Of a stretch of DNA of 64,000 nt, positions 11,880 through 40,870 are shown piece by piece. Below the pieces are notes generated by a model. It made no database searches and was not told the origin of the DNA. It saw nothing but the letters and a program-made list of their open reading frames with translations. Position numbers and translations under genes: made by a program. Positions within the stretch are counted from its first letter, which is position 1. Each line of letters starts with the position of its first letter. The stretch comes from Amoebophrya sp. A120 (lineage: Eukaryota; Protista; Dinoflagellata). The stretch covers positions 3,251,319-3,315,318 of the forward strand of contig CAJINV010000003.1 of assembly GCA_905178155.1 (NCBI GenBank), written 5' to 3'.

Positions 11880-12148
11880 GAAATGCAAACCCACACACAG
11901 GGACAAGATGAAAAGAACAATCAATCCCCCACAAAAACGAAATACAAAGAACAATCCACATCTTTTGAGCACTTCAAAAAATCCAAAATCCTTTCAAACA
12001 CCTTTCCGAACCAATGAATGAAATTGATTCTGATACAAAAAAACATCTTCATAATCAAAGAGATTTTGGATTTTTTTTCTTCTTTTTTCTCCAGGTCAAT
12101 TCTCGAGTCGAAAATAAAGATATTGATTCTCTTTTTAATTAATTATGG
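11880..12148. other. Left part of an AT-rich island interrupted by the giant transposon
   Basis: Abrupt low-GC, GA/TC-rich sequence of the same character as 39684-40870; ends in the TSD AATTATGG (12141-12148). Confidence 0.6.
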
Positions 12149-12197
12149 TTACAGCTTGAGCAGCTGTTAATTCCTTGGGCGCGTAAGTTGTTGGTAT
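12149..12197 (+). repeat. Left terminal inverted repeat
   Basis: TTACAGCTTGAGCAGCTGTTAATTCCTTGGGCGCGTAAGTTGTTGGTAT. Confidence 0.88.
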
Positions 12198-12605
12198 GAT
12201 GCTGGTATTTGGTGCTAGCAAAACCGAATTCGTTGCGACTTCCGGCGATTTCTGAAAATGAACGAGAGCAACGATATCGCACGACTAAAATTGATGCTTT
12301 GGCTCCTTGCGCGTGCAACAAAAAAAAAGGCTTTGAACGAATGGAATCAGCGACTTATCAATAACGACGGACGGCGACGACAAGCGCAGACCGGCATTTG
12401 TACCCCGCCCCGGGAGGCGGCGCCGAACCACGTCCAGTGATACCGAGGCGAAAATAACAGAACACGCAAGGGCGGCGGGGAGATGCGTGACAGCCTGCAC
12501 GCTGTCCAGGATCCCACGCTGTTACTCCCGAGTCTAGGAGCAGGCTCCTCGAGTGTCTGTTCTCAGATTCAGACACAGACACTCTCCGTTTTTTTTTGGT
12601 TATCA

Positions 12606-12800
12606 TTTTTTTGGTTATTATAAAAATTGGCTATCATAAAAAACACGCCGCGCCTGCGGTCTTGGTGGCGGTCAGGTTGTGCCTGCAGGCCAAAGACATT
12701 AGCATTTTTTTGATTATTATAAAAATTGGCTATTAATTATAAAAAACACGCCGCGACTGCGGTCCTGGTAGCGGTCGGGTTGTGCCTGCAGACCAAAGAC
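12606..12800. repeat. Subterminal ~100-bp imperfect direct duplication
   Basis: Two copies of TTATTATAAAAATTGGCTA..TAAAAAACACGCCGCG.CTGCGGTC.TGGT.GCGGTC.GGTTGTGCCTGCAG.CCAAAGACA. Confidence 0.8.
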
Positions 12801-12917
12801 AAGATTAGTATAAAAAAGTGACTAGTGCTCGCGCAAAGTATAAAAAAGCGCCGAGGTTGCGACGGCAAACGAACGCAATCAAGACGGGGGCGCCACGTCA
12901 GCGAAGAAGCCGCCGCC

Positions 12918-15243
12918 CTACCGCTTTCCTGCATCCTCCTGGCCTCCTTCTTCTTCGCTGCTCATGTTGCTGGAACTTCCCGCCTCGCTCGCCGTCTGCT
13001 CCCGGCGGCCAAGGAGCAACGCCGCGTCCTGCTCCTCGTCCTCCTCGGGATCCAACTCGCTGTCCAGACGGCGCGCCGTCCATCTTTCGCGGCGGCGCTC
13101 CTGCTTTCGCCTCTTCGACGAAGGGTCGAAGAGGTCTTCGTCTTCCGGGGAGCTATAGACTATGTAGTCCGAGGGCGGCTCTGGAGAGCTATAGATTATA
13201 TAGTCGGAGAGCGACTCCTCGTAGTCCGCTTCGGTGAACAACTCCTTGAACTGCTTCTCCTGCACCTGCTCCAGTGCGTCGGCGATAGGTTTGCTCTTGT
13301 ACCTGCTCGCGTGCGTGACACACCAGTAGGGCGTGGGCCACCGTACTTCAGTGTGCTCCGGGGCAGCATACCAACCTTCCGGAAGCTTCGCGGCGACGCG
13401 TTTGTTCGGTGGCAGCAGTACAGTCACCTGCGTGAGTGTTCGGTGGCAACAGTACCAGACTAAGGCGCTCATGCTTTCCGACACTCATAAATGAAAACAG
13501 AGGCGAACAATCTAGATCTACAGCAACATCTACCTGCTGGGTGTAGCCCATCGCGCGCAATTCCCCCTCCGTCGTGAAACCCTTGCGAACCTTTTCGCCC
13601 TCGCGCGCAACCTTGGAAAACGACCGCCAGTCGATGTTGTGCTTCAACTCGATCTGGAACACCTCCTCCTCGGAGGCCTCGGGCTCCGCGTCGTGGAATC
13701 GCTTCGGGATATCAGCCTCCCAAGGGCCGCGGCTGCGAACCTCACCGTCCAAGAGCCGCTTATACACCCCGACCGTGCGCTTCTCGTCTTGTTCTCTACG
13801 GTACGACCGCGCCATAACGGCGACAAGATGGCCTTCCAGGTGTTCTTGCAGTACGTTCACTGCTTCTGCGGTGATGGCAAAAAATGGCGGGGCCTGCTCG
13901 GGCTCGCCATTAACGGCGGAGGCAGTGCTTGAGTCGAGGTCCTGGTCGGACTCGGCCGCCGGGTCGTGGTCCTCGGCCGTGTCCTCTACCGCATGGTCCA
14001 AAATGTCCGTGATCAGCGCGCGCATCAACTTTTTGGAAAACCCGTGGAAGCGGCCGGGCTGCCGTAGTTTCTTCTTCCCAGTCTCGGGGTTGACGACGTA
14101 TTCCTCGTATTCGTCTGCGACCACCTGCCACCGCGCCCCGCCCCGCACCACAAACTTCCCGCCCTGTTCGTCCGCTTGAATCTCTTCGTCGCTGTGATGC
14201 ACCACCTCCTCCTCGCTTTCCCAGCTGTCGGAGGAATCCGAGTCGGGTGCGGCGGCTTTGCCCTTCGCGGGCGCGGCGGCGTTTTTCTTCGCGGGCGCGG
14301 CGGCTTTGCTCTTCTTTGCTGCGGGCTTTCGGCCTGGCCGCTTCTTTGGTGCCGGCTTCGCCGCCTTGCTGCTCGCCGCCTTTCTGGCCTCGCAATGCTG
14401 AAGCAAATGCGCCGGCAGGTCTTCTGGGATCAGACCCTGCATGAGCTTTTGTTGTTGCGCGCTGGAAATGAAGAACAGCTCCTGCCCGTCGATTCCCCAG
14501 TAGTCTTCGAAGACAGAGGGATCGCCCCACTTCGGTTCGACCGAAACCTCCTGCGGCTCGTCGCAGCAATCCCCATCGGAAACCTCCACAGACCAGGCCT
14601 CTAGAGCTGCGTCGTCGTCGAGGAAGAAATAAGCCTGCTCCTGCGCGAAGCTTACGCCGTCAATACCCTGCCGCATTTTTTGGGAGATAAGACACTTGTC
14701 GCGAATGAATTCCTGCAGCTTGTTCTCCAGCTTCTGAACGCAAATCATCCGCGCGGCCGTCGGGGGGCGGGTCCTGCGCTGGGGCTGCCGGCTAATCACC
14801 AGCTGGTTAGCGTACAGCCCGGGCGACCTACCGCTGTTCAAAACTTTCCGCCGGAAGTTTTGAAAGTGCGGTGAGCTCGGTCGCTTCGAAGCGGCGTGGT
14901 TGCGAAGCGGCAGTCGGGGGGCTGGAGCTGCGGCTGGGGTGCTGCTCGCGGCAAGGCTGCGGCCGGGCTTGTTTTGGTTTGAGCTGCTGGAGCCGGGCTG
15001 ATTTTGATCGGCGCTTGCGCTGCTTGAGCTGCGGCCGGGCTCCTGTGGGGCCGGCATCGACATCGTGCGGCGGATCCTTCTCAGCTCGGTGTCGACCTCC
15101 TTCGGATCTATCTTGCTCGGAAGAGGACACTGCCCGTCAAAGGGGGAGAAGAACTTCTTGCGCGGAACCTGCGGGCCGTCGTCGTCCCACAGCCCTGGGA
15201 CCTCCCAGAGGGGGAAGGTTGTGCCGTTGACAACATGCGTCAT
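12918..15243 (-). CDS. Transposon cargo protein with Lys/Ala-rich tract and divergent H3-like histone fold; 2 exons (15243-13534, 13427-12918)
   Basis: Phase-0 GT..AG intron 13533-13428 joins the 631-aa and 188-aa ORFs. 'FSKKLMRALITDI..FAITAEAVNVLQEHLEGHLVAVMARSYRREQDEKRTV' resembles H3 alpha1/alpha2/L2. The 5' end is uncertain. Confidence 0.6.
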
Positions 15244-16041
15244 CTCAACAACTACAAGCGTTTCACTTTAGCACCTACCTACTTACTTGGCCGATGATCC
15301 CTACCTATTTTATTTCTATGCTTTGCGTACTCCCTCGCGCGCTTTTTGCTCTGTGTATGGTTGTCACAACTAGCATCGCACTTTTGTGCTCTAATCCCGC
15401 CGGCGGTATGACGTGGCCTGTACTTCTTAGTGCACTAATCCCGCCCGGCGGTGTGATCTGACTCATATCTGTAGCTCGGCGGGTCCAGTTTGCTGGTGGA
15501 TCTCGCTCTGCGTGGTTTGCGGCTCTTTCTCTTTTTCATTTCTACACGTGCGAACATTGCGACCAAGTAGCGGCCCGGGCGCTGCTGTTCTTCTGAGCGG
15601 CGTCGCTCATCTAAGAGCGATTCATCGGAGAAGCTACTTCCAGCTATGATGACGATCTCACTTAGCAAATCTAGCAACTTCATGCGACGCTCAGAATATG
15701 ACGACACAAAAGCCAGAAAAGCACGTTCCAAAAAGTGCCATGCATGTTGTGCGGACTCCTTTGAGGAGCAGGACTATAAAGCGGCGACGTTTTTCCATTC
15801 AGTTGCCACTCTTTTCGTGAAGACCTCATCATACAGTACTCGATAGTTTGTGGAGCAGGGATATTCTGAAAAGGAAAACACAACAATGATTACGCTATGC
15901 CGAAACTGAAAACGTCTGCTATGAATATGATAGTCAGAAGGAGGAAAGTATATCGATATAAGCGAAGAGAAAATAACTTTGCTGACCGAAGTACTGCAAC
16001 ACAAACGATGGCCATGCAGACGGGTACTGAGAGATCTCTCT

Positions 16042-19000
16042 CTAGAACATGTTCGCGCGAAAGCCACTGGGGCGCTGTTCTCCTGCCAGCGGGGCGCTGT
16101 TGTCCTCCTCCTCCGCGTTAGTGTGCGGCACTTGGAGTTTGCTGACCTTCGCCGCGAATCTGCTGAACCACGCCGCGGCCAGTGGCTGCAACCGGTACCA
16201 CGGGAGCCCGGTCGGGCGCCGGCACGTGGCCTTCAGGGCCAGCACCTCCCTCCTGGAGGGGAGGAACCCCGCGCCGGACGCGCGCCGGTACGCTTCCTCC
16301 ATCTCGTGGATTTCTTCCCGACACAATAGCCGGAACACAGCCTCGCCCGCTCTGTTGACGTTCTCAAACATGGACCGGATGCACTGGACATTGTCGCCGC
16401 TTAGGTGCGGACTAATCAGGCCGCTGATGGTCTGCGCCCGGGCGTTCCATTCGAACGGAATACCGTAACGCTTCCAGTCCATGGGACGGAGGAACCCGTT
16501 GTTGGCCAAACAGATAACGGAGTCCGCTTTGTCGGCGGTCCATTGGGTCGCGCCCGGGGTCCTGATGTGGAAGTTGTGGTTGAGGGACTATAAGTGTTGG
16601 GGGACTAGCAACAAAGAAGAACAGCGAAGCAGAGCAACACAAGGCCCTGCGCATGCTTAGCATAGCAACACAAGTACCATTTCCGGTAGTCATCCAAGGA
16701 GGCGCGCGATAAGGCTGCGGCATCCGCCCCCAGAATGTCATCCAGTTCCTCCGGCGAGGGCAACTCTTCCACGTACGACCGTGGTGCCGGTGGTACCTCC
16801 GTCAAGTAGCAGCCAAGCTGCTCATGGTGCGGGAGCTTATCCCACGAAAGGGCCCGGTATCTCTCATGCAGGCGCGCGACACAGTTCAGCTCCGACAAGA
16901 GCTTGTCGATGACGCGAGCCGACTCGATTGCCGCCTGGAGGAGCACCATTATCTGCCGACTCAACGTCCACGTTTTCTTCTGTTGTAGTGGTCAAGAGTC
17001 GTTTTTTTTTGGCGCTGTTGCGGTAAGTGCTAACGTTGGTGTCAGTATGGTGGTGCTAGCGCCACAGTATCAGTATCTCTAGTTCTTGCGTTATTGCGAT
17101 AGTTTCCGCCCTCTTCGGAAGACGGGCGAACAACAAGAAAACAGCCGCGGGGGCGCCTAATGCTCTACCTCCTCCGCAGCAAATTCGTCTTCCAGGCTCC
17201 CCTTCTTCGTTTGCTTCTTTTTGGATTTCGGTTGCTGATCCCAGCGAGGAAGCATGTGGTAGTCAATACCAGCCAGGTAGCTGACGTACTGCGCGGACGA
17301 CCCGTTCCACACCTCTCCGATCCCAACGGCGACGTCTCGTTCGTTCATTGCGCCACCCTTCGCCCGCTCCTCCAACGCGCGGAGGTCATCTACTACCTGA
17401 TGTTAATGCGACGAATTGCCCGCATTTCGCTGCGCCAAATGGCTACGCAGGAGCATTTCGCTTGCACTGAACCACAGCAAATGTGTATGTAGGAGCTTCC
17501 ACTGAACTAAAGCAAGTGTGTATGTAGGAGCATTGCGGTGGTATGTTTATGCAGTTGAGCCCAATGTTTATGCAGGCGCATCAATGCGCATCAATGTGAT
17601 CACTCACCTTTTTCATCGGAGACATCAAGTCGACTTCCAGGCTTTCGAAGAATTTCGTAAATGAGTCCAGAAGTGTGGACGGCACGCCCGGCAAACGCGG
17701 CCGCGTTTTTAGCAACGCAAGCACTACCATTCTCGAAGGGTCACTCGAAGCCGGAACCATGAGACTGTAGTCCGGCGCCAGAACGTCCCAGGTCTCCGTG
17801 TGTTCCGCGAACCACTTCGCGACGGCGTCAAGCAGCTCCACTTCCTCCCCTCCCACGGCGGGGATGCGGTATTCGTGGAGCATCACCATGGCTTCGATGA
17901 AGTCAGTCGCGAAAAAAACCCACGCGGAGACTCCATTTTCGACCGCTCGGAATAACGAAGCGACAAAATTGTCGAGATGGAGTGGCTGCAATGCCTCCTC
18001 CTCAGGCCAATTGTCCGGGACTGTTGTGCAGGGGTACGGCAATACTGCTGCGCAAGTGCTGAGCAGCTTGCTATCTAAAAAAGATAAAGATACTGAAGAT
18101 ACTGCATCTATTCACTGGGTATTCACTGGGTGTCTCTGCACAATGATACTACTCACACTACGCACAATAGAAATACTGTTCGTGCGCTGGGTGAACGTTC
18201 TGAAGCTCGGTCGCTCGGTGAACGGGTAGTGCCGGTACGGGTTCTGGCCCGTTGGCGCGAAACGGCGGGGGGCTCCGCTCGCACCTAAGTCATCGTCCTC
18301 GTCGTCAGAGAGTGACATTGCCCCGAACCTCTTGTTTGGCGTGCGGGATGGATGGCCGGGAGCGTTGTCCGGCCGCGGCGTCGCATCGGCGTCCTCCACA
18401 AGGACCTCGCGTTTTTGAGCACCGGGGTCCCCGACGATTCGGAGGTGCATACTAGGCAACTGCCCGGGAAGGAGTGGGGACGGCGTTGGAAGACTTGCAA
18501 CCGGCTGGCCCGGATCTGTTACCTGGAGGTTATAGGAACAAGAAGGTTGAGGAAAGAGAATTCACAACCACGTGGTCTTCTACGGCCAACATCACAGCCA
18601 CATGTTCTTCTACGGAATCTGCGGCCAACATCACAACCACATGTTTTTCTACGTCCTGTGGCGGCGCCGTCGGGCCCGACGCGCGCGAGTGCTGTCTGTC
18701 CTCCAAGTTCGGCTCGAGGGCTTCGCTCGATCGCGCGCCGGGGGCTGAGACGATTCGTTGGCGCATGCTGGGCAACTGCCCGGAACGGAGTCGGGACGGC
18801 GTCGGAACACCTGCAAACGGCTGGCGCGGATCTGTTACCTGGAGGTAAAGGGAAAAACAATTGTCAGGCCTGTAGCGCCATGTATTGGCCGCGCTTTTTC
18901 TGCTATGTTATGCGCCAGCCAACATGAGAACTTCGCACGTTCTTCTACCTGCGGCGGCGCCGACGGATCCGACGACGTTTTGTTCTCCCCGTTCGGTTTG

Positions 19001-21772
19001 TTCTCCTCGTGCGGTGGGTGTCCTGAACGAAAGCCACCGCTTGCGGTCCGGCGCACCTCCGGGTCTGCTCTAGAGGAGCTTGGGGCGACCTGCTCCCCTT
19101 GCACTGTTCTGCGAGTGGACGCGCCCTGCGCCCCCGCGGCGGACTCCCAGCGCGCCACAGCCCGGGCAATCGGCTCGCCTGTTCCGTCCGGTTTGTTCTC
19201 CACGTTTGGTCTGCTTTCTGCGAGGGCGCAGCTGTTTCCTCTTTTCTGCACGACCGGTTTGTTTTTCTCCTGGCCGGGAAACACTGCCTCTTCTGACCGA
19301 GAGACTCTCTCTTGTGCCGTTTGTTCTCCGCGTTCAGTCTGCTTCCTGCGAGAGCGCAGCTCCTTCCTTTCTTCTGCAAGGCCGCTCTGTTGTTTTCCTG
19401 GCCGGGCAGCACTGCTCCCCCTGGCCGAGAAAGGCTGTTTCGTGTGCGGGTTGCGAGAAGGACTGTTTCCCCCGTCCTGGACTATTCTGTTCCTGCGAGT
19501 CGCGCCGCCCTGTTCCTGAATGGAACTGAAACAGTTGGCGAGGTCCAACGAGGGCGATACGGATGACCGCGACGGCGATGTGAGGTGATTCCAGACCCGG
19601 TGATGGTCACCATGCAGGAGCGGACTGGAGTGGTTCTGCCGCCCTGGCGTGCGTCGCGGAGCGTCCCGCGCCACCGGGTAAGCGTTTGCAGTCGCCCGGC
19701 GGTGGCCCGTCGCCCGGCGGTGGGGACTGTAGACGGAATACGCCCGGGGCGAATCGTCGCGGTGGCCCGTCGCCCGGCGCAGGGGACTGTCGTCTTCGCC
19801 CGGAGGTGCCCGGCACTCTCCTTCCAGGAGCCGTGCTCGTGGCAAAGGCAAACCCTGCGGCATACCCTGCGGCATCCGATCTTCGGCTGGGGGCGTCGCT
19901 TCCGCATTATTCTGCTGGGGGGAGGCGCCAGCGTCCGCAGCAGAGTAGTCCGCTCTCGGACCGTGGAGCTGCTTCAGGACAGCGGTGTCGTCCGTAAAGG
20001 CGTAACCGGATACCTCGGCCAGGTACGCCTGCAGCAACTCGGGATCGACCCGATCCGTTTCGCACCGGGCGAACCCGGTCCGGGCCGCAAGCATCCCGAC
20101 AATTTCGCACAACAACCGCGTGGGCCGCTCCCCGCCGAGCTGCACCAGCTCCCGCGCGCCTGAGTGACCCCATTTTTCATCAGATTCACGCAGAAGATGT
20201 TATTTTGAACCATGAAGGAGCTCTTTCAACTAGAACTCTTTTCAACTAGAACGACCGACTCTTTTCAACTAGAACACATGAAGGAAGCAAAAAGGAAGCA
20301 AAGGAGTACGGTGCAAGAACGGGTCGACACACATCACAAGTTCTCGGTCCAGAGCGTCGGGACCCTTTTCCTTCTTCCGCCTGATGTAGCTGGCCAGTTT
20401 GTCCGTGGGGTTCCTCACAAACTGGGAAACTATCGCCGCCATCATCGTTCCGTACGTCGCCCTCTGGGCGGGGTTCAGTGGGTCTTCAAAACCAAACGGC
20501 ACCTGCAACTGGGGCGTCTCCCGGAGCCACCGCCTCGCGTCCTTCACCACTATGCCACAGGAAGACGCTGGCAGGGCATACGCGCACTGCCAAGTAGGCG
20601 AGTAAGCACCGTCGAGGCGCGACTAAGAAAGCACCTCGAGGTGCTACCCCTACGAGTATGGCTGTGACTACACGCAAGCCCTGCCAGTTTTTCCGGTGGG
20701 ATACACTCCTTGAACTGCAAGAAGTACGCGGGCCCAACCACGGAAAGATATCCAGCAGGTGCAACTTCCTGCGCGGCGATAAATAACTAGCATCATACGC
20801 GGGAGCATGAGCATGACAAACGGGCGCCGGGCGTCATATGCGACGCAGCATAACAAAGTGCCGGCCTATCGAGCAGCAAGTCGCATGTTTTGGATACTAA
20901 TAAACGAATGGCGATCTGGCGGACCATCTCGCGAACCGCCTCCTCCTCGTTCGCGTGCGCAGCTATGAACTTGTCGATCCACTCCACCTGTATCACAATC
21001 GTTGAGCGTTAGTTAACATATCTCATCACCCTCATATCACACGCTCGAGGTCACAGGTCTTCAGAACGAGCAACCCAAACGGCTCACCTGTAACTTCGCA
21101 CGCCTTTGCGTCACGGCGCGACTCTGACGCGTGTGCTGGTTGAAGATTGGGGGGAACGCGGAGAGACAAATCTCCAGGTCCTCCACGCCCAAAGGGCTCT
21201 CCTCCAGGGTCTTGTCCGCCGAGACGGTCCACATCGGCTTCCTGGTCCCGCTGGCCGCCGCCGCGGCTTGCGCGAGCAAAAACTTCGCGAACGCCGACGC
21301 CTTGGCGAAGTTCAAGAAGGACTCCTCCGCGTTTAACTTTTGCAGCTCCTGCACGGCAAAAGCCACCTGAGTTCCATGTTGAATGTTGATGTCGGTCGAA
21401 GCTAGAGAATGAGGGGCGCGTACTGTTCATGCCTGTCAGAGCTACACTACAAAATGACTCATCAGAAAAGATATCAGAAAAGAGTGAAAAAATGGCAGCA
21501 GGCAGCAGAGCAAAGAAGCGAAGGAAATGCACCACGTCAACACCGGGCCCGTGTCGTGTTGCGAACGCCAGGTGGCACGCCGTATCCAGTTCCGCGTTGT
21601 GGTCCCAGACCTCCTGCGACTGCTTTGGTATTTTGTAGTGTAAAAACACGCCTTCCCGGATCTCCGATACGGTTGCGCGCCGCTTGGTAACCGTGTCCCG
21701 CTCGTCGACGAGCGACTGCTCGTCCTGCAGGAGCGGCCCATCGTCCTCCAGAAAGGGAACGGCGTTCAGCAT
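16042..21772 (-). CDS. Multi-exon (~12 exons) orphan cargo gene of unknown function
   Basis: Successive minus-strand ORF pieces (21772, 21366, ~20990, ~20770, ~20550, 20145, ~18840, 18459, 18042, ~17400, ~16980, ~16560) bounded by canonical sites, e.g. CAG|GTGAGC near 21087, CTCAG|GTG at 21366, AAG|GTGAGT near 17607. Not every junction was resolved. Confidence 0.55.
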
Positions 21773-21869
21773 GCTTCCGCTTCCTTCACGTCAGTAGTTG
21801 GTGTCGTTTCGTCTCCCTTCTCGCTCTTTGGCGTCCTTCGGTTGACTCCGTCTCCTTGTAATTATTCTG

Positions 21870-23170
21870 TCGGTGTTGCCGTCTTCCTTTCCGCACTTTG
21901 GCGCACTTGGAATGTCTCCGACCGTTGTTGTTTCCGCGCTTTGGCGTACTTTGAATGTCAAAACTCCGGTATTGTTGTCGTCTTTCTTTCCGCACTTTGG
22001 CGTACTTTGACTAGCGCTAGATGAGAGAACACACTGTCTTATCTGCTAGCGCAATGAGAGAATCGCTGGAGCCTCACGCGACAGGTGCAGCCGATTTGGT
22101 ACGTAGTCGCTCGGAAGAGCGCGGGTCACATACACTGCGCAACGCGCTTTGCACTCTGAGTCAGCTCTTTGGGCTTTTTCGGTCTCTCCACTGTGGACAC
22201 GCGGCTCGCTCTGTGTCAGCTCTTTGGGCTTTTGCGGTCACGCCACACCGTGGACACGCAACTCTCTCAAGGGCTGTTTTGACAATGCCAGGCGCTCACT
22301 CTCTCAAGGGCTGTTTTGACAATCCCAGGCGCTCACAAAAGTTTGACATGTGCGCGTCCGTCCCTCACAAGAGATTGCCTTGTACGTGCGCAGTCTGACA
22401 ACAACACGGCGGGTGAGCGTGTCCTACAGAGCACAGCTGTGGAAGGTGTGATCCGTCTGGCTATCTTGGCAGATCAGATCGATGATGTTGGATTCGTGCC
22501 AAGTAGATTCGTATGAGTTACTTTGCTTCCTTGCGCTGTTGCACTATGACGCTGATGCGCTGTCGCAAAAAACTAAGGTCGTGAACGTGTCAAAATTTTT
22601 TGAAAACTATGGCCGTGGACGTCTCACGTAGAAACCACATCGACGCGCTTTCTCGAGCGTCGTCAAACAGAAACAGTCTTGTGAATGCGACTAGCGAAGC
22701 AGTCTTGTGAATGCGACAAGCTGCTGGCGATATGGACGTCAAACAGAAACAGTCTGGCGAATGCGACAAGCTGGTGCTGGCAATATGGACGTGAACGCAA
22801 TAAAAGACTATGGACGTGAACGCCAAGTTGTGGCATCGAAGTGGCGTTCTGGCATCGAAGTCGTGTTGTCTAAAAGAGTATGGCCTTCAGCCTCAGCCTC
22901 AAGATACGGAAGCTCTGTCATCGAAAAAATTGTGCTATCTAGAGCGTCACATTCATCGTGTTGCCTAAAAGAGTATGGCCTTCAGCCTCAAGATACGGAA
23001 GCTCTGTCATCGAAACAGTTGTGCTATCTAGAGCGTCGCCTTCAGTCTCATGAGACAAATAGCATGAAGCTCTGTTATGGAAGTGGAAAAAGTACGACGC
23101 TCGGTTATCGAAGTTGTGCTATCTAGCGCGTCACCTTCGAGCTGTGCTATCTAGGGCGCCACCTTCAGTT
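21870..23170. repeat. Degenerate short direct-repeat block upstream of the multi-exon cargo gene
   Basis: 3x TTCCGC(A/G)CTTTGGCG.ACTT, 2x CTCTCTCAAGGGCTGTTTTGACAAT, 2x CTAAAAGAGTATGGCCTTCAGCCTCA, 4x TGTGCTATCTAG. Confidence 0.75.
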
Positions 23171-23687
23171 TTTCATTTTCTCATGAGAAAAATAAGCAAC
23201 AAGCTCTGTGATCGAAGTTGTGGCGTCTCATGAGATGAAAAATAAACAGCGACTTACCAATAAACACCACCCTAACAACCAACTTCACTTTCCCGCACTA
23301 GGAGAAGACATCTCGCCAATCTTCACTTTCCGCACCCGGAGCACTAGGAGAAGACAAGGCTCTTACGACGCTGCGGCGGAGCAGACCGGTCGCTACGACC
23401 GCGATCGCTGTGGACTGCTGTGGCCGACGGGGAGGGCTCGCGGTGCTACCGCCTCCGATTCGTGCGGATCCATGGCGAACCTGCCCCCTCCACATTGTTC
23501 TCCAGCAAACCCCGCGATCCCATGGCCCAGGTGACACGGGCCCCATCGCCTCGCGGTTTCCTGGTTCAGTCGACCGGGAAATCGCGACCTTTGTTGAGAG
23601 ACGAAAACCAAACAGGCCCGAGAACGCGGGCGCGAGCCGATTTGCTCGGCCGCGCCACCAATCTCGGGCCGGTAGTAATCAAATTTG

Positions 23688-26530: not shown

Positions 26531-26557
26531 ACCCGTGAACGTTCACTCGCGGTCTGG

Positions 26558-29500: not shown

Positions 29501-31382
29501 CAAGGGTTGCGTCTTTCTGCAGCATGTGAAAAATTTCATCCGCTGGGGCGCTGGCGAGACCGAGGCAGAGAATCAGCACTGGCAGCAGGCTATCAATCTC
29601 GCGAAGGAACTGCCCCTTGCCTAAGTCGAGGGGAAGGAAGCGGCTCAAGAAAGGAACGGGGGGCGCCCCCTGTACTTGCAAAAACAGGGCCGGGATTAAG
29701 CTCCGACACACGCTTCCGAAATTGCCCCGCCTGCTCTCGACTGCGACGCCGGGATTGCCCAGCACATTCAACACCTCGCCCGCGACGACAGCGTCGGAGA
29801 CCTGTCCGCCGGCCCAGGTTTCCTCTTCCGCTGGATCTGGGGATCGCTCCCCCAAAATCGCACGGAAACTGGCCACGCGGCTGCTCAACTGACTCATTGG
29901 AGCCGTAACCATGCCCAGCGCGTCTGCTACTGTGTGCAAATCGGTCTCCCGAAGAGCGGGGCCGGGTGCAGCAGCGTCAAGCGGGTGCATCACCTGAGGC
30001 AGGAGCGCGCCCCGTGGGGTAGTCAGCTGCCCCCGCAGTTTGTAGCGGTTGCGACTGAGCGCGAGGGACACCCGTCGCACGGCCCGGAACAGCCCACCGC
30101 GATCCAGCCCCAGGGAATTGGCGAAAGCGTCCAGGGACCGCCCAAACGCGTTGTGGACCGGGTGGGCCGTACAGCGGAGGACGGTCTGCACAACTGCTCC
30201 ATCACTTTCCGCAATCTGCCGAAGGTGCGGCGCGGCCTGCGCGGTGATTATGGTGTCCGTCATTTCCATGACGTAGTGGCACGCTGTGCTCTCCGCCTCA
30301 TCCGTATGGTGGCCAATTACCTGTGTAATGTTTACCAAGATCAAGAACGACGCGACACTGCCGAAGCAAGAGGCAGTCCTCTTTCTCCTACAGACAAGAG
30401 GCAATCTTTCTACTACAGAATACTCTAAGAGTCGCTGTACCCAGAAGGGGTCGTGGGTCGGCCCGGGTCTTGGCAGGTATTTTTCCATCGCGGTGCAGAC
30501 ACAGTGCGCCATTCTGAAGGCCTTGCTCTGCAAGTTCCACGTCGCACCACCTTGCTCTGCTGATTCCTCAAGGAGAAACAAATCCGCCGGCAGGGTCACC
30601 GAAGCGCCCGTGCGAAGATCTTCTGCCTCCAGCACCATCACGCTGAACTTTTGATTCGGGTCAACGTCCCGGGTGACGCGTTTTGTTGTCGTGGTCTCAT
30701 CGCACTTCTTCCGCGGCTGCGCTAGGGCCGCCCCCTGCGTGCCGTCCCATGAGCAGTGCAGCACCCCCGTATTCGTGCGGGCGAAAAGCGCATCACGCAG
30801 CGCGTCGCTGAAGAGCGAATCCACCTGCACCAGCTGCTGCGTTGTCAGCACCGCCTGCTTGTCCAGATACTTGGCCATAAGCGACCCTGGGGGAGGGGGT
30901 CGCGTGCTGGGGGCGTCCGAGCTCTCGCGACCGGCATCAGCTCCATGCTCGTCCCGCAAAACGCACGCCCAAGTGCGCTCTTCTACGCAAGCGATGGCGG
31001 GTGGACCTCCGTCGTCTCCGCCGCGTCCACGTGCTGGCACTTCCGCCGTCTCCACCGCGTCTTCTGCTGCTCTCCCGCGAAGCCTGTCTGCTTCGCGCTC
31101 GTCGCGCTCGTCATTAAGCAAGAACCTGTCCGCGTCTATATCCTCAGCAGCTGCGTCCTCGTGTCCGCCTTCGTGCCCACTCTTGCCTCGTCGGAAAGCA
31201 GCTGTTCGTCGAGTCGGCGACCCGGTGGCCCGCGCCTGTTTCCGCGTGGGGCCCGGGGACCCTTGGCCGCGGCGGTGCGGTGATCTCCCCTCAGCGGCAC
31301 GGCGCTTGTTGTCTTCATGGCGAAACTCTTCCAGGTCTCCCCGTCGGTACAGGGTGCTTGGGAAGCGTTTCGGCTTCAGCAT
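26558..31382 (-). CDS. Candidate DDE transposase (CxxH-type, hAT/Mutator/P-related clan); exons 31382-27022 and 26897-26558
   Basis: Motifs HCSWD213G, GHHTD361EA, LRC404TAH407PVHNAF and TTHRVE772SRHA in the expected order. Phase-2 GT..AG intron 27021-26898 adds an acidic C-terminal exon. Lies inside the TIR/TSD-bounded element. Confidence 0.65.
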
Positions 31383-32038
31383 CTGGCTTTATACTCTTCT
31401 TTGTTCTTCCGACAGCGCGTGTCTGTACCTCGCTCAGAAGACTCTCTCGCTCAGAAGACTCTTCGTTGTTCTTTCGAAAGCACCTTCTCGCTCAGAAGAT
31501 TGGTGTCTGTACCTCCTCGCTCAGAAGCCCCTCCTGTGCCCTCAACTCGCTCAGACTTGGTGTCTGTACCTTCTCGCTCAGAAGCCCCTCCTGTGCCCTC
31601 AACTCGCTCAGACTGCTCTCAAAAGAAATGGGACAACGCGTGGCGTATCTAGAACAACAGGGCGTCGGCGTTGGTACTCAAGCAACTCACGGAAAGGATG
31701 CCGCGCCGGTGGCACACATATCGCCTATACGGCCACGATCGTAAATCCAGCCGACAGACTTGTCGTGTGTTGAATTTCAATTCCGACAAACAGATCCAGC
31801 CAACAAAGAATCGTAATTCCACATCCAGCCAACAAAGAATCGCAATTCCACCCAAACGATAATCCTATAATCCTTTCCGTGTGTCAGTTCCTTTCTTTCC
31901 GTATCAGTATCAATCCTTCCAAGTCAATCGATCCTTCCAAAACAAAGGAATCTTCCCAAAGTGAAGCATTTCGCGTGAAGCAGTATGCTGATCATCAACG
32001 GCGCGCGTCATCAGTTGCGTCAGGTTGGCGGCGGCTCA

Positions 32039-32660
32039 TCACATCGGTTGGCGGGGCCGTGCCGGTTCATCCCCGGCCGCGGGCGCCGGGGAGAGGGTGT
32101 GTTTCGTTTCCCACTCCACGTCGTACTGGTCCACTTCCCACTCCAGGTGGTGCCCCAGATGGTCCGCTTCCCACTCCAGGTTACCGGTCCACTCCAACGC
32201 CCGCGCCGGGATGGTCGGCTCCCGTTTTTCCGGGACTACAAATCCCGCGCTGTTGATTTGAATAAAATGACGATTCGAATTGAATGACCTGTGCATTCCA
32301 TGAATACCAATACCATCGCCCCAATCACCAGGCAACTACTGTTAACGGCGCATCCTAAAACAAAAAATAACAACGGTCCGAGAGATACCGGAGAGCGTTC
32401 CGCCGAACTTTGTAGGCGGCACGGTGCGTCTTGGCGCGCATCTTTGCGCCCTTGTACGCCGCCTTCGCGCATCTGGTCGCCAATGTGTTGCCGTGTTTGC
32501 GCTTGAGCTGTTTGTACTGCTGCTTCTTTTCCAGGTACTTATTAATTTCCTCCTTCAGATCGCGGCGGCGAATCGCGAGATCCTTCTCCGCAGACGTGGG
32601 TGGGGTGTACCCTCGCTCGATGGCATCGCGCCACTCCCCTTCGGGCTTGAACCATTCCAT
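32039..32660 (-). CDS. Small basic cargo protein (160 aa); exons 32660-32389 and 32249-32039
   Basis: Phase-2 GT..AG intron 32388-32250; K/R-rich helical N-terminal half. Confidence 0.55.
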
Positions 32661-33284
32661 CCTGCAGAAGTGTACAAGAGCTCGTGCAAAATAAAAGGGG
32701 GCGAGCAGTGTAAAAGAGCCAAAGATGAAGACGACAATCGAAATAGGTAGAAAATAGGTGGACTTGAAGGAACTTGAAGGAACAGTATGAAGATGACAAT
32801 CGAAATAAACAACAGCGCACAACTACAGAAGCTTTTGAGTCGATCCCGATACGTAGAAGATGTCCTACAGACTGGTCGAATACGCTACTGGCACGCTACA
32901 GACTGGTCGAATAGGCTACCGGCTACTGGTACAGCGACGAGGAGAATACGCTACTGGCACAGCAGGCACAGCAAACAGCAAAAAGAGACCGGGAACGGGC
33001 TCTTGAAAGCGACCGGCTGGCAACTGGCCGCCGTACTGGCTCGCGCGCGTGCTCGCGCTGCACCCCTTCCACCAGGCTAGGGCGCGGGGGCTCGAAGCTC
33101 GCCCGTGCCCAACCCTGCGCTGCTGCGCGTGCTACGCGCGGGCCCCGGCCCGCGATTTCCGAGGGAGCCCCTCGGACTGCCGCCCCCGACGACTAGAGTC
33201 GGGGGCGGCAGTCGGGGGCGGCAGTCCGCACGACCTTCGGCCCAGGCGGTCCCTCAAAAATACAATCCTTATCCCGGGCGGCCC

Positions 33285-33525
33285 ACCGCCCGAAAAATAC
33301 ATTTGCGGAAAATCGCGCGCGATTTTCTCGAATGAGCCGAAACAGCTCGGCGGGATACGGACTTTATTTTTTCTGCGGGCGCGAATGCGCCGAAAATGAT
33401 CACCGCCCGAAAAATAAGGTCCTTATCCCGCCGAGCGGTTTCGGCTCATTTGGAGAAAATCGCGCGCGATTTTCTCGAATGAGCCGAAACAGCTCGGCGG
33501 GATAGGGACCTTATTTTTTTCGCGG
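33285..33525. repeat. 110-bp near-perfect palindrome (33410-33519) preceded by a partial direct copy
   Basis: AAAAATAAGGTCCTTATCCCGCCGAGCGGTTTCGGCTCATTTGGAGAAAATCGCG|CGCGATTTTCTCGAATGAGCCGAAACAGCTCGGCGGGATAGGGACCTTATTTTT; centre and right arm repeated at ~33308-33372. Confidence 0.9.
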
Positions 33526-33539
33526 GCGCGCACGGCCAG

Positions 33540-34302: not shown

Positions 34303-34913
34303 TTAGTCCAACACGATCGGGTCGGAAGGTGTGCCGGCAGCGGATTCATCCGCGTCGGAGAAGTCCGACAACACGATCACCTGGGGCGGGGGCTTCAACC
34401 TGTTTCGAAGAATTTGATGAATTGCGGTTGCAAGAATTTGAAGAAGCGAGCGTCCGAAGAATGCAAAACAAAAAGAAGCGAGTGTCTGAAGAATGCAAAA
34501 AGAAGCGAAGATGACATGCAAAAAAAAGAATGTAACTGTTACCGCTTCTGCTCGCGCCACTTTCGCGCTTCCTGCTCCTGCCGCTCCCGGAGCTGGTCCT
34601 GCTGGCTGCTGCTGCTCTCTGCTCCGCGCTTCCTGCTGCTGCTGCTGCCTCCGCTCGCGGCTGCTGCTGCTGCTGCTGCTTCCGCTCCTTCCGCCGGCTG
34701 CTGCTGCTTCCGCTCCAGACCCTCCTTCGGCTTCGCCTTCGGATCTTTTTCGAGAAAAACCTCCTCGGGATCCTCATACGGCTGGGACCGCTGAAGGCTG
34801 GCCCCCGTCCTCAATTCCTCGGCGGTCGCGCGGCGAGTCAGCTTCTCATTCGCCCGGTAGGTCGGCGTCGCTGGCGATGCCGGATCGCCCACTGCGGGCG
34901 GCTTCACAGACAT
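34303..34913 (-). CDS. Disordered cargo protein (155 aa) with C-terminal SUMO-interacting-like motifs; exons 34913-34543 and 34399-34303
   Basis: Phase-2 GT..AG intron 34542-34400; the product ends 'PPQVIVLSDFSDADESAAGTPSDPIVLD*'. Confidence 0.6.
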
Positions 34914-35169
34914 GAGGTACAAGCGGAGTAGTACAAGTAGATTCGAGAGAAAGACAGTAGAAGTGCAAATGCGAGAAAAGGAAAGTAATGCGAGAAAGTT
35001 TAGTAGAAGCGCAGATGCGAGAAAAGGAAAGTAATGCGAGCAAGTTTGATACAAGTAGAAAGTAGATGCGAGAAGGTCGAAAGCACAAGCGTGCACTTAG
35101 TCGCAAAACCTGTTGAGTTCACTGTCGTAAAACTTTGTCGTAGTTGGTTCGAAAGCAGCGTAAACTTAG

Positions 35170-35700
35170 TTCATTAGATATCGAGACTCATACGCGCTCT
35201 TGCAACATGATCATCTTGAACCTGATCGGCAGAACCACTTCCACGATCTTATGAAGAACCAGCGCCACTGCACCAGAACCACAAACCACTTGTACAGATC
35301 GAGAGTAGACCGCGCTCTTGCACGATGATCATCTTGAGCCCGATGTTCAGAACCACTTGATCATATTGAGCCTGATCTTCAGAGCCACTTGTGCGACCTT
35401 ATGAAGAGCCATCATCTTGAGCCCGATGCTCAGAACCACGGGATCATCTTGAGCCTGATCTTCAGAACCACTTGTGCGACCTTATGAAGAACCAGCGTCG
35501 CTTCACCGGAAGCGCTTGTGCGATCTTAGCAGAACCACAAGTCGAGCCTAACCTGATCAGAAAGAAACTAGAGCCACTTGCGCGATCTTATCAAGAACCA
35601 CATGCGCGATCTTATCAAGAACCTGATGGGCAGAGCATGAACGAGGACCATCCTACGGAGCTGCTTGATCGAAAAACGCAACCGAGCTGCTTGATCGAAA
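35170..35700. repeat. GATC-rich degenerate repeat block
   Basis: Many copies of GATCATCTTGAGCC(C/T)GAT..TCAGAACCAC and GATCTTAT(G/C)AAGAACC. Confidence 0.75.
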
Positions 35701-35985
35701 TCGTGCTTGTCTGTTGTTGCGAGCTGCTGTTGCGGATTGCGCAGCAACTGCTATTTTTTTTTTTGACACTGTTAGTTCTCGAGACAATTGAGCTGCTGTT
35801 CTGCCGCGCAGACACAGTAATATTCATTTGCGAAGAAGGGTGTGCTGAACGAATCGCGCGAAGAAATTCATAATCATACGGCATCCATCAGAAGAACTGT
35901 CGTTTTGTCCATGAGGACGGAAGAGCTGTCGTCTTGTCCACAAGAAGCATTGCGGTGCTGCTCTGTTGCTCAGCGACATGCGAGC

Positions 35986-36886
35986 TCATAGGTTGAGCTC
36001 ATCAATGCGAGCAAACAAATCATCCTCCTCCTCGTCGTCGGACTCCTGAGCTGCGGCGCCCCCGGGACACCAGGAAACCTGGTCGAAACAGTGGAAGAGT
36101 CGCTGTTTTTTCTCCGGCACCAGTCGCGCGGAGTCCCCCTTCTTTTTGTTCGTCCTCTTCCACGACGGCGGCACGCGGCCCAACCGCTCCACTTGTCGCA
36201 GAACGGTATTCATCTCCTTCAGCACGTCCTTCTCGCTCTGATCCAGCGCCGCCCGCGCCTCTATCCGCCGCAAATCGCGAAAGATACGCCACAGATGACA
36301 ACAGAAGCAAAAAAGTGCGCCACTGGGGCAGACTGCTCTTTCGTCCTTCTTCCCGAGGCGGTACAGGTCCTTCTGCATATCCCGTTCGAGCTGGTTCAAG
36401 CAGAATGCTGAACCAGTGCCGAATTGTGCGTTTGCAGAGCTCAGGAGGCCCATCCCAAGCCGACAGTTGTTCGACATCGACCCCTGGAGTAAGCAAAAAT
36501 GAAAGGTCAAAATGCATGCGGAGAGTCAAAGTGCAACTATCAGAGCCGAGGCAGAATTCAACTATGAGAAGAGCACAACGCAGCTATCAAAGGCATGCGG
36601 AAGTCAAAAGTTCAGCATGAATAACTAACCAGAATACCTGCGTTTCCGGGCGGTTTCGCGTGTCTTTGCCGTTGTCTTTGCCGTTGTCTTTGCCGTTCCA
36701 GCGGCGCAACCCTTCCTTCAAGGCCCTTGCTTTGTGGCTCTTTTTGCACTTCTGTCCGAACCCGATCCCACCATTCCCCCCGCCGCCGCCACCACCACCA
36801 CCACCACCACCACCGCCGCCCGGGTCCTTGTCCTTCTTCCCTCTGTTTCCGCGTCGGCCCCAGTCGTTCCCGAAAGCGTGGCTCAT
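35986..36886 (-). CDS. Cargo protein (248 aa) with poly-Gly/basic N-terminus and acidic C-terminus; exons 36886-36638 and 36483-35986
   Basis: Phase-0 GT..AG intron 36637-36484 joins two ORFs in frame. Confidence 0.55.
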
Positions 36887-37097
36887 GTAGCGCGTCTCGT
36901 CCCAGATCTTTTTGCCATCGCTCCCAATCAGGAGCCCATATCAAAAGTAAAAATGCCGGGGTCTGGAAACTTGTGACGCTTGGTGGCGTCTCATGATGAG
37001 GCTACAAATGCTCTCTCAGCATGACAAGTTTCTGAGCTCCTAGGTGTTGCCTATTCTGCATGACAAACTGCGCTTCTGCATCACAGAAAAATGTTGC

Positions 37098-38290
37098 CTA
37101 TTCTGCACGACAGACATGAATTCTTCCAGACCCGGACATTGTTACGCTTGATAGCCCGGTGCCTGGATCAATTCGCGGGCCGCTGCTGCTGGAGCTACTG
37201 GAGGACCCGGCGCCATTGCTGGAAGAAGAAAACGCCCCCGCTCGCACCTGCGACTCCGCCCGCGCTGCGTACAGCTTTTCGAACTTCTCGAGCTCCTCCG
37301 CGACCGTCGTGTTCTGGGCGTTTGTCAAGCACCGCGCGATCAATCCACCACCTGCGTGGGACAAGCGGTCCTGGAACTTCCACTCGTCAAAATTTCTATG
37401 CTTCGCGTCCTCGTCCTCTCCCTGTCCTTCGTCCTTGCCCTGTCCTTTGGGACGTCTCTCCTTCGGGAACGCGCTCCGCATGATTTCTTCCCATCCGCAG
37501 GTAACTTGCACTAGCCGCGCGCTCTCGACCAACAACACGACCTGCAGGTACGGCATCGGGTAGACATAGGGGAGACATGCGGCGTACTTCATTGTGTCCT
37601 TCTCGGGATTCATTGCGTCCTTCTCGGGATGGTATCCGCGTGCCTCCAAAAATTTGCGGAAGGGCTGCAGTTCGTGCGATTCCGCGAAGATGTAATCAAG
37701 CGCCAGCGGCAAAAACGGATCAAGTAGCTTCTTGTACTGATTCTCCACCTTCGGGTCTGCATCGTCCAGATACATCAGCGCCCCCAAGACCGCACAGAGC
37801 TTGCCGGCTGTCTCTCCTCTTTCCTCGCAAACGCGGTCAAGGGCCGCGTGGAAGCGGTCGTCCCACAAGCCTCCGAGCTCATGCACCTGGTGGTTTATTT
37901 TTGTAAAAAAAAGTTGTCGCATTTTGGAAAAAATGAAAACAATGAGGTCGCTTATTGCTGCAAAATGGGGGAAAAAGCGCAAGGCTATACCTCTAATTTC
38001 CGCTTTGTGTCATTTGCGCCAGAAAACAACCCGCGCTGCTCCAGCTCCAGAATCCACGCAGGGGTCGCGTCCCGGTTGACCTCCTGCATGTATTGCAGGA
38101 CCTGCTGGAGGTTTTCCCATGTCCAGTTCTGCAAGTCGGCCGTCGACAGCTTCGCTGTCTTCTTTGCTTTCTGGGCGGAGGCGCCGGCCGCGTTTCGGGA
38201 GCTGCTGGCACTCGAGGAGGTAGTCGCCTTCCGGGAGCTGCTAGCACTCGGGGAAATAGTCGCCGAAGACGACTGCTGGCTCTTCGACAT
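37098..38290 (-). CDS. Cargo protein (362 aa), helical, unknown function; exons 38290-37991 and 37886-37098
   Basis: Phase-0 GT..AG intron 37990-37887 joins two ORFs in frame. Confidence 0.6.
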
Positions 38291-38494
38291 GGTCGCAAGT
38301 AGATAAAGGAAGTAAAGCGAAGGATGAAATGTAATCAAAGCCAAAGGAAGGAAAGCGAAGTATGAATGTAAGTTTAAAGTAAGTATCAACGAAAGAAATC
38401 AAAGAAAGTAAAGCGAAGTATGAAAGTCTTTCTAGTTCTACTCTACTCTACGGTCTTAACTTATAGCGTTCTACTTTCTAGGTCGCTGTGGTAA

Positions 38495-38980
38495 AGATCA
38501 CAAGATGATCCCTGAACATCCCTGAACCTGCGAACTGATCATGAAGGAACCTGGAACCTGCGGACTGATCATGTAGGATCCTGGAACCTGCAAACTGATC
38601 TTCCTGATTGCCCCAACGCTGTACCACCGGGGGCGCGCTGTGGTAAAATGCAGCCGGCGACTGCACGCGACGCTCGTCTGATTCATGAAGGAACCTGCGA
38701 ACTGATCTTCATGAAGGGCCAAGGATCTCTCGATCTTCCTGTGGTCGCCTAGCTCTTCCATGTGCCTAGATCTTCAAAGTGAAAAAGAAAGTGATCCCCT
38801 TGCTCCGTGGCGATCCTTCAAGTTTTGAGGATCATGGTCCTCTCGCTCAGTGGTATGAAGATCCCATGATCCTGCGATCGTGCACATCTGTTGAGCTAGC
38901 TGATAAGATCCAGCGATCGTGAACATCTGTTGAGCTAAGTGATCTGAACATCTGTTGAGCTAGCTGATCTGCGTCGGAAC
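38495..38980. repeat. GATC-rich degenerate repeat block near the right end
   Basis: 4x GAACCTGC..ACTGATC, 3x ACATCTGTTGAGCTA. Confidence 0.75.
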
Positions 38981-39626
38981 CTGTGAACTTGCAGAACAAA
39001 GCGCTTGGCGCGTCAGGATGCAGAACCGAAAGGGTTGCAGGAAACTGCGCGAAGGGTATTAATAATATGCACCGCTGTGCCACAGCTACACTATGGACGC
39101 CACTGCTCATCTACTAACACAAAAAGCCTCTGCTTCTCATTGTCTCGATGCTCACATCAGAGAGTGCCTGTCCATCATTCATTCAGTCCTTTTCTCATTC
39201 GTTTCTTCTCGCGCGCTTTTCTCATGCGTGTGTGCTGCGCCCGCCCACACCAGTACCGCTGCCGTTCCCGTCTCCCTGCGGCCGCGGGCTGCGAGTCGTC
39301 GCTGGTTTTTTTTTGGTAAATAGATTGAGAAGATCACCATGCACAAAGACAAAGAGAAAGCAGCGTGAGCATCATTTTCATAAAACGCGGAAACACAAAC
39401 AACGGATAACAAAAAATGTATAACCTGTCCAGCGCGTTGCGCACCGCTGCACTAGCTTCTTCTTCGCCGTGTTGCTGGCTTCTCAACACCTCGTGGAGAT
39501 GAGTCGTTCCCAAGCTGTCACTTCGAAGGGCTTGCTCATCATGTTGCTGGCTTCATGTAATTACCGCGCCGCTTGCATTCGCATGCGCCCCGCTCGCAGG
39601 CGGCAGAGTGTTGTTATACGCGGCCA

Positions 39627-39675
39627 ATACAATCAACTTACGCGGCCGCTAATTTAACAAGTGCTCAAGCTGTAA
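39627..39675 (-). repeat. Right terminal inverted repeat
   Basis: Reverse complement TTACAGCTTGAGCACTTGTTAAATTAGCGGCCGCGTAAGTTGATTGTAT, followed by the TSD AATTATGG at 39676-39683. Confidence 0.88.
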
Positions 39676-40870
39676 AATTATGGAATTAATGAGGAAGAAT
39701 TTTGAATCCGATCCAAATAATATTCGAAAATCAGATGAATTGAAATCCGAAAGAAATTTTTGTTGTTGGAAATTCATGAAAAGAATTTGATTTGGATTCT
39801 CATTTTCGAAGAGGAGGATGTCAACATTTCCGATCTAGAGGTGAATCAAGAAGAATAATATTTTCGATATCTAGAATTTTTTGGATTTTCATATCGAATC
39901 TCCGATATAAAATGATTCTGAATATTCCAGAGAGATTGGAAAGAATATATTTTTTTTTTCTATCTTGCAATTTTTTGTCGAGGAGGAGGATGATGATGAT
40001 CAATATTGTTAAATAAATCTATGACATATCTATAAATATCGAGGGATGGGCTATAAATTTGATGTGTTTATTTTTTTTTTATCAAATTGATATCATCAAA
40101 GAAGAAAGAAATAATTTTCAGAATCAGAATAGAAATAAATGAATCTTTTTCTGATTTTTTTTCGAATATCAATGAAGAAATACCAAATATCAATTCAAAA
40201 TGACAAATTGAATCATTCCCAGATATGAAAAGAAAGAAAGAAAATAAGAATCTCATCATGAATTTTTTTTTTGAAAATATTCATAATCCGACATCAATCC
40301 AGATCCTGGAACAGAATCAATTGATTCGAAAAGAATTTTTCCAAAATTCCGAATCCTATCCAAACTCCAATTTTCTTAATTTTCATTCTCCATTCAAATT
40401 CTTGAGATATATTTCCAAGAGATATCGAAAATTATCCTAATTTTAATTTTTGAAATTTGCAAAGATAATATAAAATTCAAAATTATCGAAGATGATTGGA
40501 TGAAATCGATAGATAATACAGATTCTCTTGATTTCATAGAGATGGAATTTCAATTTGATAAATATCAATCCGATTATATTATTATTATCGAAATCACAAT
40601 CAAGAAGAAGAACGATGCCAACAAACAAACAAACAAAACAAACAAGAAGAACGATCATTGAACACAAACATCACATGTACAAGAGACCCATTGGATCTCA
40701 ATGCATTTTCAATCCGATTATATCCGAATCCCCCAAACATTGACCAATTCCCATTTCAGAATTGATAAAGACGATATTTCATCGAGACAAAGAGAAATTG
40801 ATCAGTGGCTTATCCAATTTTATCATCATCATTGATTCTCTTGTCAAGACCTTCATCGAGAATTGAATGA
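39676..40870. other. Right part of the AT-rich island (probably a decayed repeat)
   Basis: Very low GC; C mostly in TC/CC and G mostly in GA/GG context; no credible ORF. Confidence 0.65.

Follow-up and report, generated by a model that had tools for sequence, protein, structure and literature searches.

A 27.5-kb terminal-inverted-repeat element with a predicted, very divergent hAT-like transposase in Amoebophrya sp. A120

A 64-kb stretch of DNA from the dinoflagellate Amoebophrya sp. A120 (contig CAJINV010000003.1, positions 3,251,319 to 3,315,318; hereafter the window) contains a 27.5-kb segment that has the outward form of a terminal-inverted-repeat (TIR) DNA transposon. The 8-mer AATTATGG stands on both sides of it, at 12141–12148 and 39676–39683, and these are its sole two + strand occurrences in the window. 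Immediately inside lie the inverted ends, the left at 12149–12197 (+) and the right at 39627–39675 (−), which match perfectly over the terminal 14 bp (14/14) and imperfectly further in (18/20, 34/42 and 39/49). Base composition steps at both borders, with a GC content of 0.32 in the left flank and 0.29 in the right flank versus 0.58 inside. An earlier, sequence-only reading had proposed a giant cargo-carrying transposon at this locus, citing 49-bp imperfect inverted repeats, an exact 8-bp target-site duplication and AT-rich DNA continuing across the junction. All three are confirmed here, as are the palindromic satellite and the long palindrome that it placed in the interior.

With the satellite removed, the window holds 23 pairs of inverted 14-mers spaced more than 1 kb apart, and just the pair at the element's ends is flanked by an 8-bp direct repeat. 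In block-wise Markov resamples, 14-bp inverted pairs numbered 10.5 on average, and none of 485 resamples yielded such a pair together with an 8-bp direct repeat. The two flanks would match over 8 bp with a probability of about 4e-5. One caveat is that a second, weaker pair exists in the window, a 13-bp inverted repeat (10666–10678 / 44566–44578) accompanied by an 8-bp flanking direct repeat, with the entire element lying in between; the resampling is thus lenient and may understate chance. As the ends of a larger element this outer pair was rejected: its match fails on extension (20/50), it lacks a multi-copy signal, and its 10666 end falls within the opening codons of a host dehydrogenase and is crossed by one unbroken contig of single depth. 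We read it as chance. The joined empty-site sequence contains no open reading frame (ORF) of at least 100 aa spanning the junction, which indicates that the insertion interrupted no gene. That the 27.5-kb segment is a real mobile element can be held with high confidence.

Within the segment lies an ORF of 1504 aa (26877–31388, − strand), which, with a predicted short acidic last exon (26561–26898), makes up a predicted transposase gene at 26561–31388 (−). An HMMER scan of 1.84 billion representative proteins returned three relatives at E ≤ 0.001 (3.6e-15, 3.2e-4 and 7.4e-4), all of them (P0121, P0122 and P0123) from Amoebophrya, one from A25 (CAD7962640.1) and two from AT5.2; similarity to P0121 extends to the C-terminus. 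The motif residues of the window ORF are D215, D363, C406-x-x-H409, S-R-R554 and E774. In the alignment, D363 in an xTD/xAD context and the CxxH motif are found in the window ORF, P0121 and P0122, and RVES[RK]H surrounds E774 in all four rows. D215 is matched in P0122 only, P0121 beginning downstream of it. The RW site reads T-R-W in P0121 and P0122, and S-R-R554 in the window copy. By these motifs the ORF is likely a DDE (Asp-Asp-Glu) transposase of the C/DxxH group, which supports the earlier claim of one DDE-like transposase inside, here recognised by conserved residues and by no profile match.

For this enzyme, hAT-like is the best assignment, and a probable one if the element is indeed mobile. 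An 8-bp duplication is a hallmark of hAT elements (PMC4763223, PMC6710886), and CxxH belongs to the active site (PMC7780238). At this locus the duplication is 8 bp and CxxH follows the second Asp. The helical insert has RW in P0121 and P0122, with SRR in its place here. The motif spacings of the window ORF (D2–C 43, H–W 145, W–E 220) lie near those given by the positions in the domesticated hAT Kat1 (25, 171 and 319; PMC4763223). By our reading, the RW tryptophan would correspond to Hermes W319 and Kat1 W576, and Kat1 W576A retains cutting and barely performs strand transfer (PMC4763223). Codon 554 in the window copy is CGG, one transition from TGG. Given an Arg at this site, the enzyme of this copy may be impaired in strand transfer, in which case the element would be mobile only in trans, or stranded. 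Among 30 neighbours in the ESM Atlas, every named family listed is hAT-related (FAM200/ZBED5, Dimer_Tnp_hAT, DUF4371), at scores of 0.81–0.84 that serve as leads only. Fold searches with a structure model of predicted local distance difference test (pLDDT) 34 gave no match and are uninformative at that confidence, sequence searches of the PDB returned nothing, and no search yielded a hAT sequence that could be aligned. Word-indexed homologue searches with ORF and alignment queries found none among ~8000 candidates each, the alignment query being insensitive, as it missed even the known relatives. In viral and metagenome contigs, protein-pattern scans and a 22-nt end motif led to nothing confirmed.

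Contigs from three runs (X1, X3 and X7) were compared with positions 9600–23900. X1, matched at 88% likeness, may be the assembly's own sample, and contig depth does not equal copy number. In X1 the flank has a depth of 42.8 and one contig over 12169–22922 a depth of 43.2; by these contigs the left interior is single-copy. Extra contigs cover 12169–12258 (depth 191, differing at 7 of 90 nt) and 23727–23804 (depth 213, 7 differences in 78), and another, at depth 179.8, joins 12282 to 23610 through 3 filler letters, with 51 letters on its shorter side. The left subterminal segment (12198–12282) is common to roughly four to five other ends in the same sample, ~8% diverged, of which roughly four skip an 11.3-kb single-copy left module at 12283–23609 (−), their left end joining 23610; these counts are approximate, depth being no copy number. 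The shorter copies would be 16.2 kb if otherwise complete. In X1 the contig of the flank reaches as far as 12175, and in X3 one of a variant left end starts at 12148, consistent, from the 31-mer graph, with flanks that diverge at the predicted terminus. The module itself was considered as a nested transposon and rejected, as self-BLAST found no terminal repeats. Of the further copies that the sequence-only reading proposed to look for, the contigs show related left ends at ~4–5x depth, with no second target duplication among them. Its claim of recent insertion finds its sole basis in the intact duplication and the homogeneous satellite; the related ends are ~8% diverged.

The satellite occupies 24105–26423 and consists of about 32 near-identical copies (31.8, at 99% matches) of a 73-bp palindromic unit; 29 of 31 units are identical, and each contains a 40-bp palindrome. 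To its left, at 23612–23803, are two hairpins or palindromes akin to the satellite unit, which are multi-copy (depth 213 at 23727–23804). One palindrome spans 23684–23803, and the DNA fold of 23590–23860 has a z-score of −8.4. The palindromes at 23612–23803 form a candidate subterminal transposase-binding region, and the satellite may be an expansion of such subterminal palindromes. Self-comparison also revealed the long palindrome, of A-A'-A type, at 33308–33530 (DNA fold z −12.2). A search of 12000–41500 against Rfam gave 0 matches. Separately, the interval 12600–39000 holds many two-copy tandem duplications of 16–128 bp, which are far commoner inside the element than in the right flank.

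The remaining interior is rich in predicted genes. Over the whole element, 13.7 of the 27.5 kb fall in coding-like blocks, of which there are 22, each of them on the minus strand. In-frame GT-AG joins are available between most neighbouring blocks; such joins are abundant by chance, so that the number and splicing of the interior genes stand as predictions. The sequence-only reading had counted at least six spliced genes, of which the coding-like blocks and available joins are borne out and the count itself stays predicted. Within the left module are a predicted two-exon gene of ~750 aa (gene A; 12921–15240, −), whose product has acidic stretches, others rich in Lys/Ala, and a region resembling a histone fold, and one or more predicted multi-exon cargo genes (16045–21790, −). 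Further right are a small predicted two-exon gene, or possibly 5′ exons (32042–32822, −), and predicted multi-exon right-arm cargo genes (34306–38296, −). The small gene and both multi-exon groups are unassigned. Pfam assigned no family to any of 19 interior ORFs. The GC content at third codon positions, measured for two interior ORFs (0.72 and 0.76), overlaps the host range of 0.62–0.74, and composition is thus no marker of foreign cargo. Run X7, whose status as RNA is a guess, has exact contigs on the left flank (9704–10484 and 11609–11820), and inside 12149–23900 the matches listed are short, up to ~25 nt. The RNA run X4 gave 0 reads, on the flank as well. As a separate observation, some of the element's tandem duplications copy an exon together with its splice site (18419–18544 / 18735–18860).

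Gene A carries, at 13714–14070 (−), a predicted H3-like histone fold whose loop 1 has a long acidic insertion. The residues there resemble, by eye, what we take to be the histone H3 pattern. In the ESM Atlas the region reaches 0.88 at best (174 features), with 10/10 best family matches in the histone clan, against a baseline in which one third of shuffled proteins also reach 10/10. Pfam Histone scores E 0.074, below the cut-off, on a 51-aa stretch hand-picked after the H3 impression, and finds nothing in the 114- or 238-aa forms of the region. The structure model has a pLDDT of 39 and gave no match in a fold search; the pattern of its helices agrees with a histone fold whose loop 1 is long and acidic. 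These lines of evidence are weak but converge, and an H3-like histone fold seems the probable identity of this region. Of the chromatin-related accessory genes claimed earlier, this leaves one, by its predicted fold; the others have no chromatin link, and an accessory role is putative.

The ends, the duplication, the composition step, the ORF with its conserved motifs, the related ends in the same sample and the module-skipping joint are direct observations. We think it reasonably likely, and favour the view, that the 27.5-kb stretch is one copy of a small Amoebophrya cut-and-paste family with a very divergent hAT-like (CxxH, RW) DDE enzyme, its ~16-kb backbone enlarged by captured genes, among them the one with the predicted H3-like fold, in a module of 11.3 kb. 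Following hAT biochemistry (PMC4763223, PMC7780238), the transposase would bind the ends and subterminal repeats. The latter are probably the palindromes at 23612–23803 and the satellite, which adjoin the left end in the shorter copies. The element would then be excised through hairpin intermediates and inserted into AT-rich intergenic DNA at a cut with an 8-base stagger, repair of which would create the duplication. It is likely that the module was acquired when gap repair switched templates at the 12282/23610 junction. The lack of terminal repeats at that junction fits such switching, which could have run in either direction.

A number of observations weigh against this view. Neither Pfam nor NCBIfam matches the 1504-aa ORF or its relatives, and P0123 is convincingly alignable around the E motif only, its RW and CxxH not being alignable. 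The hAT dimerisation domain (PF05699) was not found in the ORF by Pfam, with an Atlas lead of 0.82 and with divergence that could hide it, and the ORF has no BED finger (CxxC..H) pattern. The top three Atlas neighbours are unnamed eukaryotic clusters (0.88–0.91), the hAT-named ones scoring <0.9. The E motif, TxxVESxH, looks more Mutator-like than hAT-like, and TRW as a hAT signature is in part our own assumption. CxxH is not specific to hAT, since it marks the hAT, Kolobok, P, MuDR, Dada and IS256 enzymes alike (PMC3706591). As to the copies, the flank contig enters the element by 27 letters, below the 31 needed for bridging, and the 12282/23610 joint, at 88% likeness, is seen in one contig of one run that is possibly the assembly's own sample. 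The evidence for other copies consists of the left-end contigs found within 9600–23900 among the matches listed, beyond which lie at least 334 further pieces; the contigs over that interval showed neither another target duplication nor an empty site. Finally, gain and loss of the module cannot be polarised.

That last point underlies one of the alternatives, namely that the complete, ancestral element is the 27.5-kb one, its accessory genes genuine, and that the ~4 shorter ends are amplified internal-deletion derivatives of the Ds/KP kind. It differs from the view we favour in direction and in a functional module only, and because direction is independent of the superfamily call, our confidences in the alternatives overlap. 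The interior coding blocks are all co-oriented with the transposase and their frames are open, as this alternative would have it. The joint has 3 filler letters and the module is bounded by neither inverted repeats nor a duplication; filler letters and repeat-free bounds are as seen in gap-repair deletions. Co-orientation is, however, general in Amoebophrya, whose genes lie in unidirectional clusters (PMC7789003), the module is single-copy, and the short form places the palindromes subterminally, where hAT binding repeats are expected. We regard an ancestral long form as doubtful. A little less likely still is a real giant TIR element whose enzyme is not hAT, belonging either to another C/DxxH group (Mutator, P, Kolobok, Dada or Novosib) or to an unnamed, syndinian-confined lineage of superfamily rank. 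The missing profile and structure matches, the unnamed Atlas clusters at the top, VES[RK]H, the want of a BED finger, and the fact that CxxH and long duplications are common to these groups all speak for it. The RW of two relatives, whose spacing from CxxH and E is hAT-like, the hAT-related character of all named Atlas families and the 8-bp duplication speak against it. It is also conceivable, if improbable, that this is a natively giant DDE lineage of superfamily rank, confined to syndinian dinoflagellates, whose own divergent H3/CENP-A-like protein packages or marks the 73-bp satellite, and whose related enzymes are the missing mobilisers of some Amoebophrya TIR introners. Two satellite units measure 146 bp, one nucleosome core length. 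The chromatin of this lineage depends to a large extent on non-histone proteins.

Two further alternatives can be named. An accidental pairing of ends around ordinary lineage-specific genes, or a misassembly, draws on the second pair in the window (13-bp inverted, 8-bp direct), on the ~60% of Amoebophrya proteins that lack an assignment (PMC7789003), and on the fact that neither junction is formally bridged by a read in the data examined. Against these stand the 39/49 extension and the resampling result, the composition step at both ends, multi-copy ends that start at the predicted terminus and the DDE-type motifs inside; moreover, a chimera would not give matching 8-mers. We consider this very improbable. 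The least credible of all is that a DDE enzyme integrated a virus, now endogenous, or a Polinton-like element here. Its size and terminal inverted repeats would fit, and giant-virus histone clusters occur low among the Atlas matches (rank 18, 0.81), but the genes appear spliced, and viral contigs hold no relatives of the transposase, gene A, one right-arm ORF or the end motif. Among the 19 ORFs, Pfam detects no polymerase, capsid, ATPase or protease families, and the protein-primed PolB, capsid and packaging ATPase that define Polinton/Maverick elements are not found.

ORFs in the flanks are long and can be assigned to families, with Pfam matches at E ≤ 0.001 for 3 of 6 and a DnaJ gene besides, versus 0 of 19 for the interior ORFs. 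Host genes include a short-chain dehydrogenase (10656–11849, +) and a GH99 glycoside hydrolase (49821–51071, −), both by Pfam, and the DnaJ protein (61379–62464, −), by protein relatives. The best named relative of the latter is a protein of Amoebophrya sp. A25, 61% identical across 47% of the query, behind a EukProt protein without a name (63% identity). From such relatives the host is likely Amoebophrya-like, of the dinoflagellate lineage, in agreement with the earlier description of the genome as dinoflagellate-like. The element sits near the left edge of an AT-rich island (11860–12148 and 39676–41000; GC ~0.3 in a genome of 0.55) that has no long ORF. Elsewhere in the window, a 235-bp element at 42787–43021 has inverted ends (39/50), is flanked on either side by the 5-bp direct repeat AGTCG, and resembles a small TIR element of the miniature inverted-repeat transposable element or introner type. 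A very high-copy repeat end at 9633–9705 (summed contig depth ~35,000 vs 43 in X1; an exact X7 contig starts at 9704) is likely the end of an introner-type element. A 117-bp direct repeat (41290–41406 / 41973–42089) is 96% identical at a spacing of 683 bp. An intronless ORF of 2385 aa (51556–58713, −) has a weak RING-H2 match (E 1.2e-4, below the cut-off), and 7212–9200 holds a 12-bp tandem array and Thr-rich repeats, a mucin-like coding sequence.

Previous profile searches of two Amoebophrya genomes found only two putative transposases, both in the same genome, which its authors took as ruling out a general transposase-driven spread of TIR-type introners (PMC7789003). A DDE family that is invisible to Pfam, with relatives in A25 and AT5.2 besides the window, implies that such enzymes can be missed. 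The transposase described here may serve as a query for reopening the question of introner mobilisation, although an 8-bp duplication does not fit the 3–5-nt introner repeats. If our interpretation is correct, the element would be among the largest hAT-like elements in the literature examined, and an open-frame histone-fold gene would be carried by a transposon in the dinoflagellate lineage.

Amoebophrya introners themselves share the host lineage and the TIR-type ends; they are non-autonomous, and their mobilising enzyme is unknown (PMC7789003). They are short and have direct repeats of 3–5 nt, whereas the window element is intergenic, 27.5 kb long, and has an 8-bp duplication and its own transposase ORF. 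Dada, MuDR, P and Kolobok, of the C/DxxH group, resemble it in having CxxH after the second Asp and long multi-domain enzymes; Dada enzymes are ~1400 aa and occur in the alveolate Perkinsus (PMC3706591). Unlike the window element, whose region (12000–41500) has no Rfam match, Dada makes 6–7-bp duplications in small-RNA genes (PMC3706591). Among DDE elements in general, alveolates are described as minor hosts (10.1101/2021.09.26.461848). A review, in the parts available, classes elements >20 kb as giant, lists 16–20-kb En/Spm elements in a red alga and contains no whole-word mention of hAT (PMC6431247). We found no description of this family in the open literature on Amoebophrya transposons and TIR elements; Repbase and subscription papers lay outside that search, so a prior description is possible. 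The element's end 12-mers are absent from 12 of the 14 supplementary files of PMC12130899, the remaining two lying outside the search.

Closer parallels exist for size and for content. The sequence-only reading held that giant cargo elements known elsewhere use other enzymes; in that form this finds no support, as a DDE giant is known in Zisupton-3_cRei of Chlamydomonas, which is 31.7 kb and single copy (PMC9977147), Zisupton having an 8-bp duplication (PMC12730594). The Zisupton/KDZ giants resemble the window element in size, single copy, duplication length and chromatin-linked accessory genes (TET/JBP in fungi). They differ in that the 19 window ORFs have no KDZ, CxC, SWIM, Ulp1 or TET/JBP match in Pfam (E ≤ 0.1; divergence could hide them) and in the CxxH/RW motifs of the window enzyme. 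Known hAT elements (Hermes, Kat1, Gulliver) share with it the 8-bp duplication, short imperfect inverted ends, the D-D-CxxH-RW-E order and a long helical insert. They are typically ~5 kb (7.1 kb for Gulliver; PMC6710886) as compared with 27.5 kb, and the window enzyme, of ~1500 aa, shows no detected hAT profile, BED finger or dimerisation domain, has VES[RK]H at the glutamate, and is accompanied by many extra genes and a satellite. Most similar in content are the H3-carrying hATs of Dothideomycetes, with hAT-type ends, an 8-bp duplication and an internal histone-H3-like sequence (PMC6710886). These are 9.5 kb, present in hundreds of copies, mostly inactivated through RIP (repeat-induced point mutation), and carry a recognisable H3 retrocopy (PMC6710886), whereas the window has a single-copy, barely recognisable predicted histone fold within a predicted 750-aa open-frame protein. 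As for the suggestion of a possibly undescribed giant family, no description of this one was found in the literature searched, but giant DDE elements and H3 capture by hATs are already published (PMC6710886 for the latter), and the window element adds a further case.

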